NCBI RefSeq assembly: GCF_031430775.1
Contig: NZ_JANPCD010000170.1
Location: 6,003-70,002 of the forward strand
Reading direction: 5' to 3'
Length of the DNA stretch: 64,000 bases
Source of the DNA: Sandarakinorhabdus sp.
GTDB lineage: Bacteria > Pseudomonadota > Alphaproteobacteria > Sphingomonadales > Sphingomonadaceae
A program made the position numbers and the translations under genes. The notes beneath the pieces were generated by a model, which saw nothing but the letters and a program-made list of their open reading frames with translations, searched no databases and had not been told where the DNA came from. Position 1 is the first letter of the stretch, and the number at the start of each line of letters is the position of its first letter. Shown piece after piece: positions 1,620 to 34,992 of the stretch.

Positions 1620-2846
1620 TCAGGCAGCCACGGCTGTCTGGCGACGACGACGCATCGTTGCGCCAATCAAGCCAAAGCCGGCCATCAGCATGGCCCAGCT
1701 TGCCGGTTCCGGCACGGCGAGATCATAGCCCATGGTGTCAAAGGCGATGAGGTCGAGCTTGGTGATGTTCATCCGGGGACGGCTGCCGTTCGGGCCGCTT
1801 GCGGTCGGGTCCATGATGCCGATCGGCGGGAAGATGTTCAGCGCCGAATCGTCCTTCCAGTGACTGGCCTGGCGGCCATCACCATTGAACGATCCCGTCG
1901 ACAGCAAGGTCAGGCAATTCTGCCCGCCATTGATCGAGAAGCACGGGGTGCCGCCGATCGACCAGTCAAGGATACGGTCAGTGCCGAAATTGCCGTAACG
2001 GTTGAGGTCATGGACAGTGCCCCAGCCAATGTTGTTCAGGCCGCGGGCGCCATTGGGTGCGGCGCGGTTTGGCAGGGCGTTTTGATCGGCCAGATCGACG
2101 CCGGAACGAAAGCCGAGCGCATGGCCGATTTCATGGGCGGCAACGCCGACAAAATCGATGGCGCCCGGCGTGATGCCGTCGCTGGGGTCGAAGTCCCAGA
2201 TGAACAGCGTGCTGAACTGCACCGTGCCGTCGCGGCCGCCGGCATTGGTGCCAGCATTGTAGACAGGGTTGAGGCCGAGCGCCTTCACCTGTGCCGTGTT
2301 GATCTGGATGTTGTTGTTGTCGAAGGTGTTGTTGTTGTCGAGGAAGCGCAGGCGCGCATCGATCGGGCCGGTGACCGGCGGCTCGTTGCTGACGAACGAC
2401 AGCGGTCCGGCCTGCAACGCGGCAACAGATGAGCGGTCCCACACCGATTTGGCGTCGGTGCCCAGCACGCTCGCAAGGCCGGCATAGTTGATGGTGTTGG
2501 TCGTCGAACCGGTCGAACCCAGGATGTTGGGGCCAAGCTGCGCAAAGCGCACGTCGAGACGGATGGTGATCGGATCCTTCAGGACCCTGGACCACAAGGC
2601 GGCAGCCGCTTCAAAGCCGGCGCGCGCCTGGGAACCGACACCGACACCGCCCAGATCGTTGAGGAAGAACGTCATGCCGCCGCCAGCCGTGCTGGCAGAC
2701 TGTGCCAGAAGCGACGAGCCGCCGCCTGTGCCGACCGTGCCTTCGTTGCTGGTGAACTGATGTCCGCAGGTGCCGTTATGGACATGGCCCTGCGCCATGG
2801 CCGAGCCCGATGATGCAAGCAACAATGCCGCTGCAAGAATTCGCAT
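1620..2846 (-). CDS. secreted zinc metalloprotease with C-terminal PEP-CTERM sorting signal
   Basis: Signal peptide MRILAAALLLASSGSAMA from ATG 2846, preceded by an AGGGGA SD. HEIGHALG zinc motif. C-terminus VPEPASWAMLMAGFGLIGATMRRRRQ is PEP + TM helix + Arg cluster. Confidence 0.85.
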   Translation of the reverse strand: MRILAAALLLASSGSAMAQGHVHNGTCGHQFTSNEGTVGTGGGSSLLAQSASTAGGGMTFFLNDLGGVGVGSQARAGFEAAAALWSRVLKDPITIRLDVRFAQLGPNILGSTGSTTNTINYAGLASVLGTDAKSVWDRSSVAALQAGPLSFVSNEPPVTGPIDARLRFLDNNNTFDNNNIQINTAQVKALGLNPVYNAGTNAGGRDGTVQFSTLFIWDFDPSDGITPGAIDFVGVAAHEIGHALGFRSGVDLADQNALPNRAAPNGARGLNNIGWGTVHDLNRYGNFGTDRILDWSIGGTPCFSINGGQNCLTLLSTGSFNGDGRQASHWKDDSALNIFPPIGIMDPTASGPNGSRPRMNITKLDLIAFDTMGYDLAVPEPASWAMLMAGFGLIGATMRRRRQTAVAA

Positions 2847-2973
2847 GTGTATTCCCCTTTTGAAGATCAAGAATCGCTAGTCCCCGAACGCTCATTACAA
2901 TTCGTCAACGAGCGATGCAATTCGCAAAAAGACAGCCAAATCAAAATGATACATAGTTACATGAGTTGCGTCA

Positions 2974-4260
2974 TCACGCATCGAATTCAAGAATTTCAGG
3001 GATGCGGGTAAAGGCAATGCGAGGGCCGCCGGACCGCGTGGCGCCATGCAGATCGTGGCCCAATGTGACGGCATCGCGCCCCCAGCGGCTGTTGACCTTG
3101 TCCATGGCCTCCGACAGCGCCCGGCGCCGTGTTTCGGTATTTGCATCGACCAGTCCCGCGCAGTCCAGCAAGTCGCCCTGCACGGCATCGGCGTCGGTCA
3201 GTTCCGCCAGCGTGATGCCGACTTGCAGCAACCGGACCGCGCCGAATGCGTCCAGCATCTGCTGCCACAGCTGCTCCATCACGGCGACCAGCGACAGCGA
3301 ATCGATGATCTGCGGCAATTTCGTGCCGCCCTTCCAGCGCGTGCTGCGCGTTTCGCCCTCCCTGCGCGCCTCGCTCTTGACCATCAGGCCCAGCCAGCCG
3401 GCGCGCTTGCCGGCCTGCCGCAGTCGCGTGCCAGCCTTCATCACCAGCCGCCGCGTCACCAGCCGGGCGCGTTCGGGGCTTCGCTTGTCGGGACCGAGCA
3501 CGTGCGAATGGCCGATGCTTTTCTGGTCGTGGCGGGTTTCGGCAATTTCCGCACCCTTGAGCAGCCAGTGCATGCGCGCGCCCCAGACGCTGCCCCAGGC
3601 CAATTGTGCCTCGTGCGCCGACAGGGCCAGCAGCCGTTCCATGGTGACAATGCCGGCCGCCGCCAGCCGCCGTTCCATGTTGCGGCCCACGCCGGGAATG
3701 TCCGACAGCTTGAGGCGCGATAGCCGTTCGTGCAGCGTGTCTGCCGTCAATATGGTCAAGCCATCGGGCTTTTGCATGTCGGCGGCCATCTTGGCGAGCA
3801 GCCGGTTGGGCGCAGCGCCGATCGAGGATGTGAGGCAGGTGCCGACATTGGCAGCAACGCCGGCCTTGATGCGGGCCGCCAATGCCGCAACTGCTCCTGC
3901 GCTGTTTTCATTGTCCATCAACTGGCAGGCCACTTCGTCGATGGAACAGACCATCGTTACCGGGACATGGCGGGCGACCTCGGCGATGACCTTGTGGTGA
4001 AAGCGGACATAGTCGCCGTGACGGCCCGGCACCACGACCAGATCGCGGCACAGAGCCCGCGCCTCCCAGATCTTCGTGCCGGTGCGGATGCCGAATGCCT
4101 TTGCCTCGTAGCTGGCGGCAATGGCGCTGGTGGAATCCGTGTCCACCGGCGCCACCACCACGGGCCGTCCGCGTAGAGCCGGGTCGAGCTGCTGTTCGAC
4201 GCTGGCGAAATAGCTGTTCAGATCAAGGTACAGCCAGCGAAGGGGCGGCGAATCAATCAT
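2974..4260 (-). CDS. Y-family DNA polymerase (DinB/Pol IV-like, catalytic residues present)
   Basis: Motifs LDLNSYFASVEQ and CSIDEVACQL (catalytic Asp/Glu). Start set at MIDSPPLRWLYLD (ATG 4260); the longer ORF to 4386 is an unlikely extension. Confidence 0.85.
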   Translation of the reverse strand: MIDSPPLRWLYLDLNSYFASVEQQLDPALRGRPVVVAPVDTDSTSAIAASYEAKAFGIRTGTKIWEARALCRDLVVVPGRHGDYVRFHHKVIAEVARHVPVTMVCSIDEVACQLMDNENSAGAVAALAARIKAGVAANVGTCLTSSIGAAPNRLLAKMAADMQKPDGLTILTADTLHERLSRLKLSDIPGVGRNMERRLAAAGIVTMERLLALSAHEAQLAWGSVWGARMHWLLKGAEIAETRHDQKSIGHSHVLGPDKRSPERARLVTRRLVMKAGTRLRQAGKRAGWLGLMVKSEARREGETRSTRWKGGTKLPQIIDSLSLVAVMEQLWQQMLDAFGAVRLLQVGITLAELTDADAVQGDLLDCAGLVDANTETRRRALSEAMDKVNSRWGRDAVTLGHDLHGATRSGGPRIAFTRIPEILEFDA

Positions 4261-5101: not shown

Positions 5102-6086
5102 ATGGCGGTGTTACGGGCGGCGTAACGGGGATTTCCATCAGGTCGCGCCCGACGATGATTGGTCCCTTGTAGGCGCGGGCTGCCGCGCCGGCCCATTGGC
5201 TGTCTGTTATGCTGCTGTCCCCGCCCGGCACGAAATGGCTGAGCACCAGCATGCCGACACCGGCCGCCGCTGCGATCTCGCCCGCCTGTTCTGCCGTCGT
5301 GTGGCTGGCGAGCAGATGTTCCCGCAGCCGCGTGGCGTTGGTTTCGGTGGCGAGCAGCCGCTCCAATGCCGGCATGTACATCGCCTCGTGAACCAGCACA
5401 TCGGCGCCGCGTGCCAGTGCGGCCAGTGCCTTGCTGGGGCGGGTATCGCCGGAAAACACCACTGACCGGCCCGGCGAGTCGAAACGATAGGCATAGCTGT
5501 TCGTCAGCGGCGGGTGTTCTACCCGCGCCGCAGTGACCTTCAATGCCGGCGTGTCGATCAGCACTGCTGGTCCGGTTATCTCGCGCGCCGATACCATGCG
5601 CGCCAGATCGGGCCGGCCTTCATCGGCCATGCGGGTGCGGATATCGACCGCCTGCATCTTCAGGAACTGGCGGGTCATTGCGGCCAGCGGCGGTGGGCCG
5701 AACAGCTGCACCTGCCGCGCCAGCGGACCAGACCAGGCCAGCCAGGGCAGGGTCATGAAATCGGCATTGTGATCGCTGTGATGGTGGCTGATGAACACCC
5801 CTGCCAGCGAACGGAGCGGCAAGCCGGCGGCGACCAATTGGCGTGCCACACCGTTGCCGGTATCGATGACATACAGGGCGTCTCCGACCATGACGGCGGC
5901 GCCAGGCGCGGCGCGGGCGGCCTTGGGCGTTGGTCCGCCGGCGGTGCCAAGCAGGATGATACGCATCACCGGCGCGTCGGCGGCCCGGGCCGTGCCTGTC
6001 AGAAAGGGCAACGCTAGCGCTGCGCCAAGCAGTTGCCGGCGATCAGCCAAGCGCGGAGGCCAGCGCCTCGAACATGCGGCGGCCAT
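5085..6086 (-). CDS. MBL-fold metallo-hydrolase with Tat signal peptide
   Basis: HHHSDH metal motif. N-terminal [21 protein letters not shown] twin-arginine signal. An in-frame TTG at 6050 is an alternative start that would cut the 44-nt overlap with purQ. Confidence 0.8.
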
Positions 6087-6708
6087 CGGTGCCGCCCTGT
6101 TCCGGTTCGATCAGCCGTTCGGGGTGCGGCATCAGGCCAAGCACATTGCCGGCGGCATTGAGAATTCCGGCAATTTGCCGGGCCGAACCATTGACCGGCT
6201 CGCCGTAGCGCAGCGCCACCCGGCCTTCGCCTTCGAGTCGGTCGAGCGTTTCGGCATCGGCGACGAAATTGCCGTCATGATGAGCTACGGGCAGCGTGAT
6301 CGTCTCGCCCGCGTCATAGCGGCTGGTAAACACTGACTGGGTACTTTCGACGATCAGCGGCACATCGCGGCAAACGAAATCAAGGCCGGCGTTGCGCATC
6401 AATGCGCCCGGCAGCAGCCCTGCTTCGGTGAGGATCTGGAAGCCGTTGCAGATGCCGAGCACGGCGCGGCCCTCGCTTGCGGCGCGCACCACCGCCTGCA
6501 TGACCGGCGAGCGCGACGCCATGGCACCGGAGCGCAGGTAATCGCCATAAGAAAAACCGCCTGGCACGCCGATGAGGTCGAGGCCGCCCGGCAAGTCGGT
6601 ATCGCCATGCCATACCATGTGCGGCGCGGTGCCGGTCACCTTGCGCAGCGCGTCGGCGAGATCCCGGTCGCAATTGGAGCCGGGGAACACGACGACTGCG
6701 GTCCTCAC
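6043..6708 (-). CDS. purQ: phosphoribosylformylglycinamidine synthase subunit PurQ (glutaminase)
   Basis: 221 aa; [19 protein letters not shown] (catalytic Cys), MPHPER motifs; GTG start overlaps purS stop (GTGA). Confidence 0.95.
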
Positions 6709-31609: not shown

Positions 31610-32101
31610 TCAAAAATCGTCGCTGGCGTCCAGAAACAGCGCCGCCAGCGCCTCAAGCCCGGCCCGGTCGCCTTCATCGAAGCGGCCGGGCCTCGGGCTG
31701 TCGAGGTCGAGCACGCCAATGATGACGCCGTCGCGCAGCAGCGGCACGACAATTTCGGAACGGCTGTCGGCATCACAGGCGATATGGCCGGGAAAAGCAT
31801 GGACATCGGCAACGACCTGCGTCTCGCGCGTCGCCGCCGCCGTGCCGCAGACGCCGCGTCCCAACGGGATGCGGATGCAAGCCGGCTTGCCCTGGAACGG
31901 CCCCAGCACCAGTTCGCCGCTGCGCATCAGATACAGCCCCGCCCAATTGAGGCCATCCAGCTGTGTGTAGATGAGCGCGGCCATGTTGGCGGCATTGGCG
32001 ATGAAATCGCGCTCGTCGGCCATGAGACCGCCCAGCTGCGAGGCCAGTTCGGCATATTGTTCGGGCTTGGTGCCTGAAAGGGCAGGGGCGGCAAACGACA
32101 T
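31610..32101 (-). CDS. msrC: GAF-domain free methionine-(R)-sulfoxide reductase (YebR/MsrC-like)
   Basis: 163 aa; GPFQGKPACIRIPLGRGVCGTAA...HIACDADSRSEIVVPL closely follows the YebR pattern. Confidence 0.85.
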   Translation of the reverse strand: MSFAAPALSGTKPEQYAELASQLGGLMADERDFIANAANMAALIYTQLDGLNWAGLYLMRSGELVLGPFQGKPACIRIPLGRGVCGTAAATRETQVVADVHAFPGHIACDADSRSEIVVPLLRDGVIIGVLDLDSPRPGRFDEGDRAGLEALAALFLDASDDF

Positions 32102-34911
32102 CAGCCCAGCCTCTGCAGTGCGGCCGCCAGCCGCTGCGCTTCTTCGTTTCGCGCGGCATGATCTTCCCGCGCCTTTTCCACCGCTTCGGGCTTGGCCTTT
32201 TCGGTAAAGCCGGGGTTGGAAAGCCGGCCCGCCAGTGCGTCGCGTTCTTTGATCGCCCCGGCCATGGCCTTTTCCAGCCGGGCCCGTTCGGATGCCAGAT
32301 CGATGACATCGCCAATCGGGATCAACAGCGTCGCCTCCCCGTGCACGACCTGGAGCCGCCCACCGCCTGCTGCTGCGTCACCTGGTGCAATCCGTGCCAG
32401 TCGCTCGATTGCGGGAGCCTGCGCTACCAGCCGCGCCAGCGTCGCAGCGTCAGCGCCTTCCACGCTGTATGACAGCCGTGCGCCGGGCGGCACATTCAGT
32501 TCTGTTCGCGCCGAGCGCACTTCCGAAATCAGCCCGATCAGCCAGTCGATGTCGGCGCTTGCTGCTGCGTCGAAAGGCAGCGCGCCGGTTTGCACCCAGC
32601 CCGATCCGATCAGGTCACGGCTGCGCACTGCCAGCTTGTGCCAAAGCTCCTCGGTCAGGAACGGCATCACCGGGTTGAGCATGACCAATATCTGGTCGAG
32701 CGCCCAGCCAGCAACGGCGCGAGTCTCCGCCGCCACCGCAGCATCTGCGCCTTCAGCCAGCAGCGGCTTGATCAACTCGACATACCAGTCGCAAAACCGG
32801 TTCCACACCAGTTTGTAGATGGCATCGGCATAGGCATCGAAGCGGAAGTCGGCGATGGCCTGTTCCAGCGCCTGTGCCGCCTGTTTCACTTCGCCGATGA
32901 TCCAGCGGTTGACCGGCTGGAGGGCGGCGGGCGGCAAGGCGCTGTCATGGCCCGAAATGCCGTTGGACTGGCAGAATCGCGCGGCATTCCACAGCTTGGT
33001 GGCAAAGTTGCGATAGCCTTCGATGCGGCTTTCGTTCAGCTTGATATCGCGGCCTTGCGTTTCCATCGCGGTCAGCGTGAAACGCAGCGCATCGGCGCCA
33101 TATTTGTCGATGAGGGTGAGCGGATCGACGGTGTTGCCCTTGGATTTCGACATTTTCTGGCCCTGGGCGTCGCGCACCAGGCCATGGCAATAGACGGTCT
33201 TGAATGGCACGCGATCAGCGGGGTCGCTCCGCTCCGGGCCCATGAAATGCAGCCCCTGCATCATCATGCGGGCGACCCAGAAGAAGATGATGTCGAAGCC
33301 GGTGACCAGCACATCGCCGGGATAATGGCGGGCCAGATCATAGCCGGGATCGCCGGGTTGCAGCCCCCGTGTTTCGTCATTCCCGCGAAGGCGGGAAGCC
33401 ATCTCCGGCGTGTCGCGACCTGCATCTCCGGTCGGGCGATGGACCCCCGCCTGCGCGGGGGTGACGGGATCGATTGGCCAGCCGAGGGTGGCAAAGGGCC
33501 CGAGTGCAGAGGAGAACCAGGTGTCGAGGACGTCCTCGTCGCGCGTCAGCACCAGGCTCCCGGCCATTGTCTGCGCCTCGTTCTCGGTCTCGGCCACGAA
33601 GCACTCACCGCCCGGACCATACCAGGCCGGAATGCGGTGACCCCACCAAAGCTGGCGGCTCACGCACCAGGGCTGAATATTCTCCATCCAGTTGAAATAG
33701 GTCTTTTCCCAGGTCTTGGGCACGAACTGGGTGCGGCCATCCTGCACCGCAGCAAGCGCGTCCTTGGCCAGTTCGGCGGCATTCACATACCATTGGTCGG
33801 TCAGCCACGGTTCGATCACCACGCCCGAACGATCGCCATAGGGCATCTGGATGGTCTTTTGCTCGATCGATTCGATCAGGCCGAGCGCTTCCAGGTCGGC
33901 CACGACCTTTTTGCGCGCCTCCTCGCGGGCGAGCCCGATATAATCGGCCGGCACGCCGTCAGCGGCACAGATCTGCGCCTTGCCATCGAGGATGTTGATG
34001 TAGCCGATGGTCTTGTTGCGCTCATAGACCTGCCAGTCGTTGAAATCATGGGCCGGTGTGATCTTGACGGCGCCGCTGCCCAGTTCGGCATCGGCATGTT
34101 CATCGGCAATGATCGGGATGCGGCGGCCGGTGATGGGCAGCACCACGAACTTGCCGATCACCGACGCATAGCGCGCATCGTCCGGGTTCACGGCGACGGC
34201 GGTGTCGCCCAGCATCGTTTCGGGGCGCGTCGTTGCCACGATGATATGGTCCGCGCCGCTGTCCAGCACCGCGCCGTCCGCCAGTGGATAGCGGATATGG
34301 GTGAAGCTGCCGGCCACTTCGCGGGTTTCCACCTCAAGGTCGGAAATCGCCGTGCCCAGCTTGGGGTCCCAGTTCACCAGCCGCTTGTCGCGGTACAGCA
34401 AGCCCTGTCTGTGCAACTCGACGAACACCTTGATGACGGCGGTGTTGAAACCCTCGTCCATGGTGAAGCGCTCGTTTGCCCAGTCGCAACTGGCGCCCAG
34501 CCGGCGCAACTGGCCGGTGATGGTGCCGCCGCTTTCTTCCTTCCATTCCCAGACCTTGGCCACAAACGCCTCGCGGCCCATGGCGGTGCGGCCCGGCAAC
34601 CGGCTTTCCATCAGCTGGCGTTCCACCACCATCTGCGTGGCGATGCCGGCATGGTCGGTGCCGACCACCCAGCGCGCATCGCGGCCTTGCAGCCGGTGCC
34701 AGCGGATCAGCAGATCCTGCAACGTGTTGTCCAGCGCATGACCGATATGCAGGCTGCCTGTCACATTGGGCGGCGGGATGACGATGGTGAACGGCTTGGC
34801 ATCGGGCCGCGCCGGGCGAAAGGCGCCGGTGGCTTCCCAATGCGTATACCAGCGGCTTTCGATGCTCGCCGGGTCAAAGGTCTTGTCAATAAGGGTCGGG
34901 CTGTCGGTCAT
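32101..34911 (-). CDS. valS: valine--tRNA ligase (with an in-frame palindromic-element insert)
   Basis: [13 protein letters not shown] (HIGH) and KMSKSKGN (KMSKS) motifs; C-terminal coiled coil; start [14 protein letters not shown] at ATG 34911. Confidence 0.95.
33375..33466. repeat. 92-bp palindromic MITE/REP-like element inserted in frame in valS
   Basis: Terminal inverted repeats CGTCATTCCCGC / GCGGGGGTGACG. Internal hairpins TTCCCGC-GAAG-GCGGGAA (33380-33397) and CCCCCGC-CTGC-GCGGGGG (33444-33461). Confidence 0.65.
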
Positions 34912-34992
34912 GGAACCGCTGTTAGCGGGTGCGGCAGTCGCGCGAAAGCCCGCAAAAGCCCCCAAAGAGTTACCGACGGGTATGCGTTGGCG

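Follow-up and report, generated by a model that had tools for sequence, protein, structure and literature searches.

The valS gene of the 64-kb stretch analysed here (64,000 nucleotides of contig NZ_JANPCD010000170.1 of Sandarakinorhabdus sp., referred to below as the window) very probably carries, at positions 33375–33466, an inverted dimer of repetitive extragenic palindromic (REP) hairpins of the CGTC-1 type, which together with a linker forms an in-frame insertion of 123 nt and is translated as 41 residues of valyl-tRNA synthetase (ValRS). This assignment is carried by the family identity of the two hairpin arms, by the intact reading frame, by the absence of the insert from most orthologues, by an insertion common to four ValRS lineages, by independent occupation of the same loop in other relatives, and by conservation of the arms at the nucleotide level. 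The features concerned are as follows.

32101–34911, reverse strand: valS (valine--tRNA ligase), 936 aa from the ATG at 34911, taken from the open reading frame (ORF) list.
33340–33474, reverse strand: expanded loop of 45 codons (...PGDPGY), which according to alignments replaces a 4-codon loop (EQTT, DATP, ENTA and similar) between GWP and DLARH.
33375–33466, unstranded: 92-nt inverted dimer of CGTC-1 REP / Ssn-related motif (SRM) hairpins with the CGTC tags outward, recognized by its inverted repeat, the SRM regular expression, its DNA fold and the same build in other contigs.
33375–33402, forward strand: REP unit A, CGTCATTCCCGCGAAGGCGGGAAGCCAT, with a 7-bp stem and a GAAG loop; the coding strand gives ..MASRLRGND.
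33403–33438, unstranded: 36-nt spacer between units A and B, with complementary ends (CGCC / GGAG..ATGG region).
33439–33466, reverse strand: REP unit B, CGTCACCCCCGCGCAGGCGGGGGTCCAT, with an 8-bp stem and a GCAG loop; it encodes VTPAQAGVH.
33340–33374, reverse strand: 35-nt 3' linker, of which the last 18 nt (PGDPGY) are common, by DNA alignment, to the valS inserts of three related ValRS (P0267, P0273 and P0295).
33467–33474, reverse strand: 8-nt 5' linker, ATCGATCC, comprising the codons for I and D and part of that for P; it corresponds to V-E/D-x-x in the three other shared copies.

The valS frame is open over positions 32101–34965 of the reverse strand, where it reaches a TTG at 34965, and both the HIGH and the KMSKS motifs are intact. 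The closest relatives of the protein are the ValRS of Sandarakinorhabdus, with 81–87% sequence identity, and Thermus thermophilus ValRS (1GAX) is matched with an E value of 2.7e-190. Between the blocks ..LGWP and YPGDV the window protein has 50 residues, compared with 9 in 165 of 180 related ValRS, and a four-residue loop (EQTT, EQTP, DATP etc.) is present at the site in 118 of the 120 closest ValRS. The loop is also short in 1GAX, and the alignment of the two proteins breaks between 1GAX residues 471 and 475. The net gain in the window gene amounts to 41 codons, i.e., 123 nt, and the extra residues read as VTPAQAG...SRLRGNDE...PGDPGY; a conserved ORF is interrupted without a stop or a frameshift in a gene whose orthologues for the most part have no such insert. 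A first-pass annotation, made from the letters of this DNA and its ORFs, had reported an intact ValRS ORF with an expanded loop of about 49 residues; the ORF and the expansion are confirmed, and the residue count is corrected by one. Since 165 of the 180 related ValRS are without any insert, the insert is not a conserved property of these proteins, in line with the same annotation. The variable, hydrophilic sequence of the region suggests that the loop lies on the protein surface.

Two further variable regions were observed in the same gene. At approximately 33190–33225 (reverse strand), the window ValRS has an 8-residue insertion after ..GLHFM, a second patchy indel that it has in common with P0083 and P0115 (GPERSDPKDRV / GPERSDPKERV) and that other close relatives lack. 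Around columns 440–580 of the ValRS alignment (from IPAWYGP; approximately 33520–33620 in the window), unrelated insertions of 35–100 residues occur in many relatives, including P0083, P0114–P0117, P0119 and P0248, and the window protein has the short form there.

The DNA of the insert is organized as two hairpin units of 28 nt, each of which consists of CGTCA, a stem of 7–8 bp, a 4-nt loop, the return stem and CCAT. Both small hairpins noted in the first-pass annotation are exact (TTCCCGC-GAAG-GCGGGAA and ACCCCCGC-CTGC-GCGGGGGT). The 12-bp terminal inverted repeats that it had described are also present, however, they match at only 10 of 12 positions, being the ends of two longer arms of 32 nt each (33375–33406 and 33435–33466) with 78% complementarity, i.e., an imperfect palindrome. 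As single-stranded DNA (ssDNA), the arms fold with −8.4 and −10.7 kcal/mol (z scores −3.5 and −3.9), and the 92-mer folds with −29.8 kcal/mol (z −3.75), a value equalled by none of 200 shuffled sequences. For the 21-nt arm pattern with three mismatches allowed, shuffles of the window give an expectation of 0 matches, and unit B differs by a single mismatch from the arms of two metagenome copies (L070 and L077).

The hairpins can be assigned to a described family. CGTC-tagged REPs were defined by Di Nocera, De Gregorio and Rocco in 2013 (BMC Genomics 14:522, PMC3733652) as elements with 8–9 bp stems, 4–5 nt loops and a CCA tail; CGTC-1 units have an unpaired CGTC (or TGTC) tag at one end. The elements occur mostly as inverted dimers, with spacers of 20–100 bp for CGTC-1, and are commonest in Alphaproteobacteria, including Sphingomonas wittichii, Sphingopyxis alaskensis and Erythrobacter litoralis. 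The same study equates them with dRS3 in Neisseria, and identifies RPE-6 of Rickettsia as CGTC-1 and RPE-4 as CGTC-4. Chenal et al. (2025, Nat Commun, PMC11893778) extended dRS3 to a 28-nt sequence termed NTS and to the degenerate SRM, and named Sphingomonas, Rhizorhabdus, Rickettsia and Wolbachia among the genera rich in the latter. In the window, both units begin with CGTCA and end with CCAT, and they are inverted relative to each other across a 36-nt spacer with complementary ends, as in CGTC-1 dimers. Against the CGTC-1 stem of 8 bp with A-T as the first and second pairs, unit B forms 8 of 8 pairs with C-G as the second, and unit A forms 7 of 8, its first pair being broken (A/G). The two inverted units also form one larger hairpin, which is the arrangement of a REPIN. 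The SRM search motif, HGTCWYN(0-2)YYVSBRHN(0-5)WNVSBRGN(0-2)RNCYNB (PMC11893778), has exactly two matches in the 64 kb, and these are the two arms; mononucleotide shuffles average 0.8 matches per 64 kb. Relative to the canonical 28-nt NTS, the arms have 2 (unit A) and 5 mismatches, more than the single mismatch permitted, and because of this they are described as SRM-like and not as canonical NTS. A search of the insert region against Rfam gave only sub-threshold noise. Judged by these sequence properties, the arms are CGTC-1-type REP hairpins, the type known as dRS3/NTS in Neisseria, as SRM in general, and as RPE-6 in Rickettsia.

Copies of the element are found in unrelated DNA. A degenerate 28-nt arm pattern occurs in 59 stretches of a viral-contig collection, with many inverted pairs of 70–92 nt whose CGTC ends point outward, and among these copies the top two stem pairs co-vary (TT/AA, CC/GG, CT/AG, TC/GA). 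An extended-arm search (..CCATCGCCCGA) recovered dimers of 92–93 nt with the build of the window element in the metagenome contigs L065, L070, L073 and L077, which look intergenic because they are spanned only by short or implausible open frames. Contig L081 holds a further, likewise apparently intergenic copy, immediately upstream of a gene that matches PF00499 (NADH dehydrogenase subunit family); this copy came to light through a phmmer search of the 36-aa insert against 1.84 billion representatives, which returned 7 weak matches, mostly spurious ORFs over REP arrays. A metagenome scan for the right arm joined to the valS flank had no match, and the same pattern run on genome contigs gave one new locus, L061. 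A profile search with the insert and its flanks against a set of 5.8 billion proteins returned only short, insert-less ValRS fragments and is uninformative, since the query proteins themselves were not recovered. At related valS loci, further hairpins number 0–1 per 5–23 kb.

These matches bear on whether the region could be an ordinary lineage-specific protein loop whose DNA looks palindromic by chance. This part of ValRS is indeed variable and hydrophilic, and other, unrelated insertions occur elsewhere in these genes; however, dozens of unrelated contigs contain the 28-nt repeat family that the arms match, two published motif definitions fit them as well, and the arm pattern has no expected chance matches. 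The pattern matches in the viral contigs, the SRM match and the metagenome dimers refute an ordinary loop, which we regard as extremely improbable. The fit to CGTC-1/SRM and the apparently intergenic copies of the 92-nt dimer instead uphold the first-pass view of a non-autonomous, palindromic, REP-like repeat that is tolerated in frame in valS.

Although the first-pass annotation had raised the prospect of a strain-specific insert, the insertion is neither private to the window nor recent. P0267, P0273 and P0295 carry the same heterodimer, in which a ACCCCCGC arm is combined with a ATTCCCGC arm, and the same 3' linker DNA, CCCGGnGAyCCCGGyTAy (PGDPGY), which does not occur in the copies outside valS. 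The heterodimer and linker in common point to a single insertion event behind the four ValRS lineages, as far as can be judged from sequence comparison. A compensatory TT>CC / AA>GG change within one arm was considered and rejected, since the ACCCCCGC arm type exists in other copies, and the element is therefore a heterodimer. At third codon positions, the four carriers share an identity of 0.64 across the linker and 0.61 across the spacer, with a gene mean of 0.57; linker and spacer have diverged like the gene, and the insert has therefore co-diverged with valS. An assembly or binning artefact, in which a repeat was mis-joined into valS of a metagenome-assembled contig, deserves mention, since tracing the homologous copies led to metagenome assemblies or to records of metagenome-assembled genomes (MAGs). 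The preserved reading frame, the occurrence of the same insertion with its co-diverged linker in independent NCBI, ENA and JGI assemblies, and flanks that are colinear with those of orthologues leave this explanation with a negligible probability.

Several observations weigh against the reading of the insert as a translated mobile REP dimer. The dimer does not account for the whole insertion: beyond it, each valS insert has 31–53 nt of linker, about 31 nt net in the window, and some such addition is needed to keep the frame, as 92 is not a multiple of three. A candidate target-site duplication, CGATCCCG at 33345–52 and 33465–72 (120 nt apart), was rejected, as none of the other three carriers has its 5' copy; the 8-bp repeat is specific to the window copy and is therefore no target-site duplication. 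The REP half of the earlier label 'MITE/REP' (miniature inverted-repeat transposable element) stands, and the transposon-style half is for this reason not established, inverted repeats being present without the duplication. A high copy number in the host genome is a trait of CGTC-1 REPs; searches of the 64 kb by BLAST, by mismatch matching and by regular expression found no second copy, and the repeat is therefore only putatively multi-copy in this genome. No gene for a GIY-YIG (Ssn-like) or HUH protein was found in the window or at 10 related valS loci (phmmer; the regular expression used for HUH/RAYT is weak). An AlphaFold2 model from an alignment of 15 sequences had a mean pLDDT of 42 and was not used, so that exposure of the loop on the surface is only inferred. 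Finally, the four carriers do not form a clade: their ValRS are 73–83% identical to each other and 80–90% identical to insert-less relatives. Such a distribution calls for lateral spread of the segment or, alternatively, for repeated clean losses, neither of which is demonstrated.

The patchy distribution would be explained if homologous recombination among related Sphingosinicellaceae had spread a short valS segment with the insert laterally, as opposed to vertical inheritance with many losses; this reading has in our judgment somewhat less than an even chance of being correct. Each of the four carriers has closer relatives that lack the insert, and in 40-codon windows over the site the window valS is more similar to the other carriers (0.84–0.88) than to its overall nearest relative (0.76–0.82), the reverse of the gene-wide relationship. 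In the 150 nt downstream of the site, quartet-informative positions favour grouping by insertion at 3:1 and 4:2, in contrast to the rest of the gene, where the summed positions favour grouping by species at approximately 4:1. No excision footprint was seen, and all 165 insert-less genes have exactly the short loop. However, very few positions near the insertion are informative, because its flanks are highly conserved, and the quartet counts are only suggestive; the synonymous divergence of the linker equals that of the gene, which argues against a recent transfer, and the neighbour-joining tree has very short internal branches.

The translated REP dimer of the window is not the only occupant of this loop. 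An expanded loop is present in 15 of the 180 related ValRS, and 13 of these 15 have peptide signatures of CGTC REPs. In P0119 (contig L001, a Sphingomonadales MAG), a 92-nt homodimer with near-perfect arms sits in the same place (fold z −8.7). Its nearest relative, P0108, is without the insert, and the 50 codons downstream are 99% identical in DNA; L001 and L063 form a filled/empty pair with 99% identical flanks. P0248 (contig L061, an uncultured Sphingomonadaceae MAG) has a dimer with a different spacer and, in the linker after the right arm, a tandem duplication of 21 nt. The P0266 group has ATCCCGGC stems, and its element lies 5' of the ancestral xTAP residues, in contrast to the window group, in which ENA-like residues lie 5' of the element; P0119 and P0248 are separate cases. 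Grouped by stem type, by spacer and by position relative to the ancestral four residues, the inserts represent, on a conservative reading, at least four independent arrivals of REP variants in the ValRS loop.

Common descent of the window and L001 inserts was examined and rejected, as the spacer of the window is closer to that of the intergenic L081 copy (27/36 identities, counted by eye) than to that of the L001 valS copy (22/36), and the flanks of L001 show no excess similarity to the window. The reading frame in common was likewise rejected as evidence of targeting. In the two 92-nt dimers that were checked (window and L001), one frame ends at the TGA of AATGACG, the VIPA..RLRGND frame is open, and the third is open in the window copy and has a stop in the spacer of L001. 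As at most two frames are stop-free in these dimers, frame use is uninformative with respect to targeting; in a set of 18 dimers, cases occur in which all three frames are open.

Other details were noted at these loci. The linker of L001 (L001 3189–3225) begins with GAACTTGG, which resembles the empty-site sequence GAACTGGCC of its relative L063. Single CGTC/TGTC hairpins with other stem types (CGTCATGCTGAACTTGGTTCAGCATCCA; TGTCACCCCGGACTAGATCCGGGGTCCGT) are found at L063 3117 and L001 4720–4748, in intergenic positions beside valS. A second in-frame REP dimer is located in the C-terminal part of the valS gene of L061 (5340–5433; CAXTSL010000035.1) and consists of another stem type, CGTCATGCTGGCGAACGCCAGCATCCA, and its inverted copy; it encodes PRHAGERQHP...DAGVRQHDG, and this gene thus holds two intragenic dimers. 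At the same loop, P0277 and P0282 have inserts of 38 residues that show no CGTC signatures (..PPSLQGRGPGGG...PFPEGEGAS) and may represent another repeat family translated in frame.

In the four carriers, the arms are far more conserved than their surroundings. Mean pairwise identity at third codon positions is 1.0 for the left arm and 0.889 for the right; none of 861 other 9-codon windows of valS reaches 1.0, and 0.2% are at 0.889. At positions with identical residues, codon identity is 0.94 in the arms versus 0.60 gene-wide. In the seven inserts for which DNA is available, 14 arms are expected, and 13 were scored as hairpins. Of these, ten keep 7–8 of 8 stem pairs, two keep 6 and a G-T wobble, and one keeps 6. 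The right arm of P0295 is decayed and falls below the cut-off of 6 pairs. The arms may be kept by selection on the hairpins as DNA or RNA; alternatively, gene conversion with other copies or templating within the strand may repair or homogenize them.

A rival reading is that the element has been domesticated, with the hairpins kept in valS for a function to the cell or to the repeat system. The hairpins could be recognized or cut by an ssDNA nuclease of the Ssn type, which would modulate recombination or transformation at this locus; they could form an mRNA structure that tunes valS translation, or supply ValRS with a peptide module. The near-invariance of the arms at synonymous positions in four lineages whose valS is otherwise at 0.57, the 7–8 of 8 pairs kept in most stems, and the persistence of the insertion across lineages with only 73–83% ValRS identity are consistent with domestication, as is the report that the GIY-YIG protein SsnA cuts such single-stranded hairpins and affects the integration of transforming DNA in Neisseria (PMC11893778). 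However, gene conversion from REP copies or hairpin-templated repair would produce the same conservation in the absence of function. Furthermore, conservation is poor in the spacer and in the peptide that lies between the arms (amino-acid identity 0.36), 165 of the 180 relatives lack the insert, the search for ssnA in the vicinity had no match, and one arm has decayed in P0295. Domestication is considered unlikely. The more elaborate proposal, in which the ValRS loop is a preferred target of CGTC-REP dimers and the hairpins are not a passive scar but are actively maintained and domesticated, with presence and absence exchanged between species by recombination, is held to be improbable. If it were true, an Ssn-type ssDNA nuclease or some other protein that binds hairpins could use the maintained hairpins as substrates, or they could act as mRNA structure.

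For the REP dimer in valS, the following course of events may be envisaged. The dimer would have arrived by a transposition-like event of a non-autonomous element, possibly mobilized in trans by an enzyme that acts on ssDNA hairpins; an Ssn-type GIY-YIG nuclease and a RAYT are candidates, and neither is established as the mobilizer. No dedicated transposase was found for CGTC REPs and no RAYT is flanked by CGTC units according to Di Nocera et al. (PMC3733652); Bertels and Rainey class the Neisseria form among REPINs and assign it a Group 2 RAYT (bioRxiv 10.1101/2021.07.10.451892). Insertions that survive in an essential gene would be those with a stop-free frame (one of two), a length that keeps the frame, and a tolerant surface loop as the site. 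Continued recognition or use of the hairpins, as DNA or as RNA, may have kept the arms intact; gene conversion with other genomic copies may instead have homogenized them. In three contigs unrelated to the window, a 99-aa GIY-YIG gene (PF01541, E = 7e-14) is located between CGTC hairpins or dimers (L017 1586–2190, L016 ~6047–6479 and L030 ~2789–3220), which is the NTS-ssnA-NTS layout described for Ssn nucleases and likened to an insertion sequence (PMC11893778).

An in-frame CGTC REP in ValRS is a known kind of event, and valS is a new host gene. Additional file 3 of PMC3733652 lists in-frame CGTC-1 copies in many housekeeping genes, with the peptides VxPAxAG, SRLRGND, IPAFAGMT and SFPRKRES; valS is not in that list. 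The first-pass annotation had considered a tolerated insertion in an aminoacyl-tRNA synthetase notable; the host gene is new, however, the novelty is smaller than supposed, because in-frame CGTC-1 dimers in the IleRS and GlyRS-beta of E. litoralis had already been listed in the same file. PMC3733652 also records double hits within a single gene, and repeated in-frame copies in dnaE2 and truB from different species. The added value of the valS case is a natural series at one site, with filled and empty alleles of an essential gene, which therefore offers junction sequences and a selection signal for testing mechanisms of CGTC REP movement, in a context where no dedicated transposase is known for these REPs and the Ssn nuclease was described only in 2025. 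The recurrent four-codon landing site, the old and patchy insertion, and arms that resist synonymous change are features of modest interest in themselves.

Compared with the Neisseria NTS/SRM system, both arms of the window element fit the SRM motif, and one arm is 2/28 positions off CGTCATTCCCGCGMAVGCGGGAATCYRG. The two differ in that hairpin clusters around genes are described for the former, and the terms 'intragenic' and 'in-frame' are absent from the text of PMC11893778. REPINs are reportedly mobilized by RAYT transposases (Bertels and Rainey 2011). The element resembles a REPIN in having two inverted REP units and a short spacer that form one long hairpin, and the master sequence of the Neisseria REPIN, ATTCCCGCGCAGGCGGGAATC, is the same hairpin core (bioRxiv 10.1101/2021.07.10.451892). 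It departs from REPIN/RAYT systems in that the window has no population of near-identical copies and no RAYT was found there, with a regular expression that is weak for such genes.

With CGTC-1 REPs, the element has in common the CGTC(A) tag, a GC-rich stem of about 8 bp, the 4-nt loop, the CCA tail, the inverted dimers and the sphingomonad hosts, as well as in-frame intragenic dimers that encode VxPAxAG.. and ..RLRGND peptides. In sequence, one window arm departs by having C-G as its second stem pair where the family has A-T. The study that defined the family reports neither an orthologous loop that is hit repeatedly, nor a cross-lineage insertion, nor synonymous conservation of the arms.

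The remaining comparison is with Rickettsia. Insertions of this kind, in-frame REPs and Rickettsia palindromic elements (RPEs), have reportedly been known since 2000, when Ogata et al. are said to have described RPEs in frame in protein-coding genes. The window element differs from these in its free-living, GC-rich, sphingomonad-type host, in being a 92-nt dimer versus the longer RPE-1, and in the sparseness of the repeat in the available sequence. The analogy that the first-pass annotation drew to RPEs nevertheless holds, as both are palindromic repeats that lie in frame in housekeeping genes and are read through as peptide, and both belong to the same CGTC superfamily (PMC3733652).

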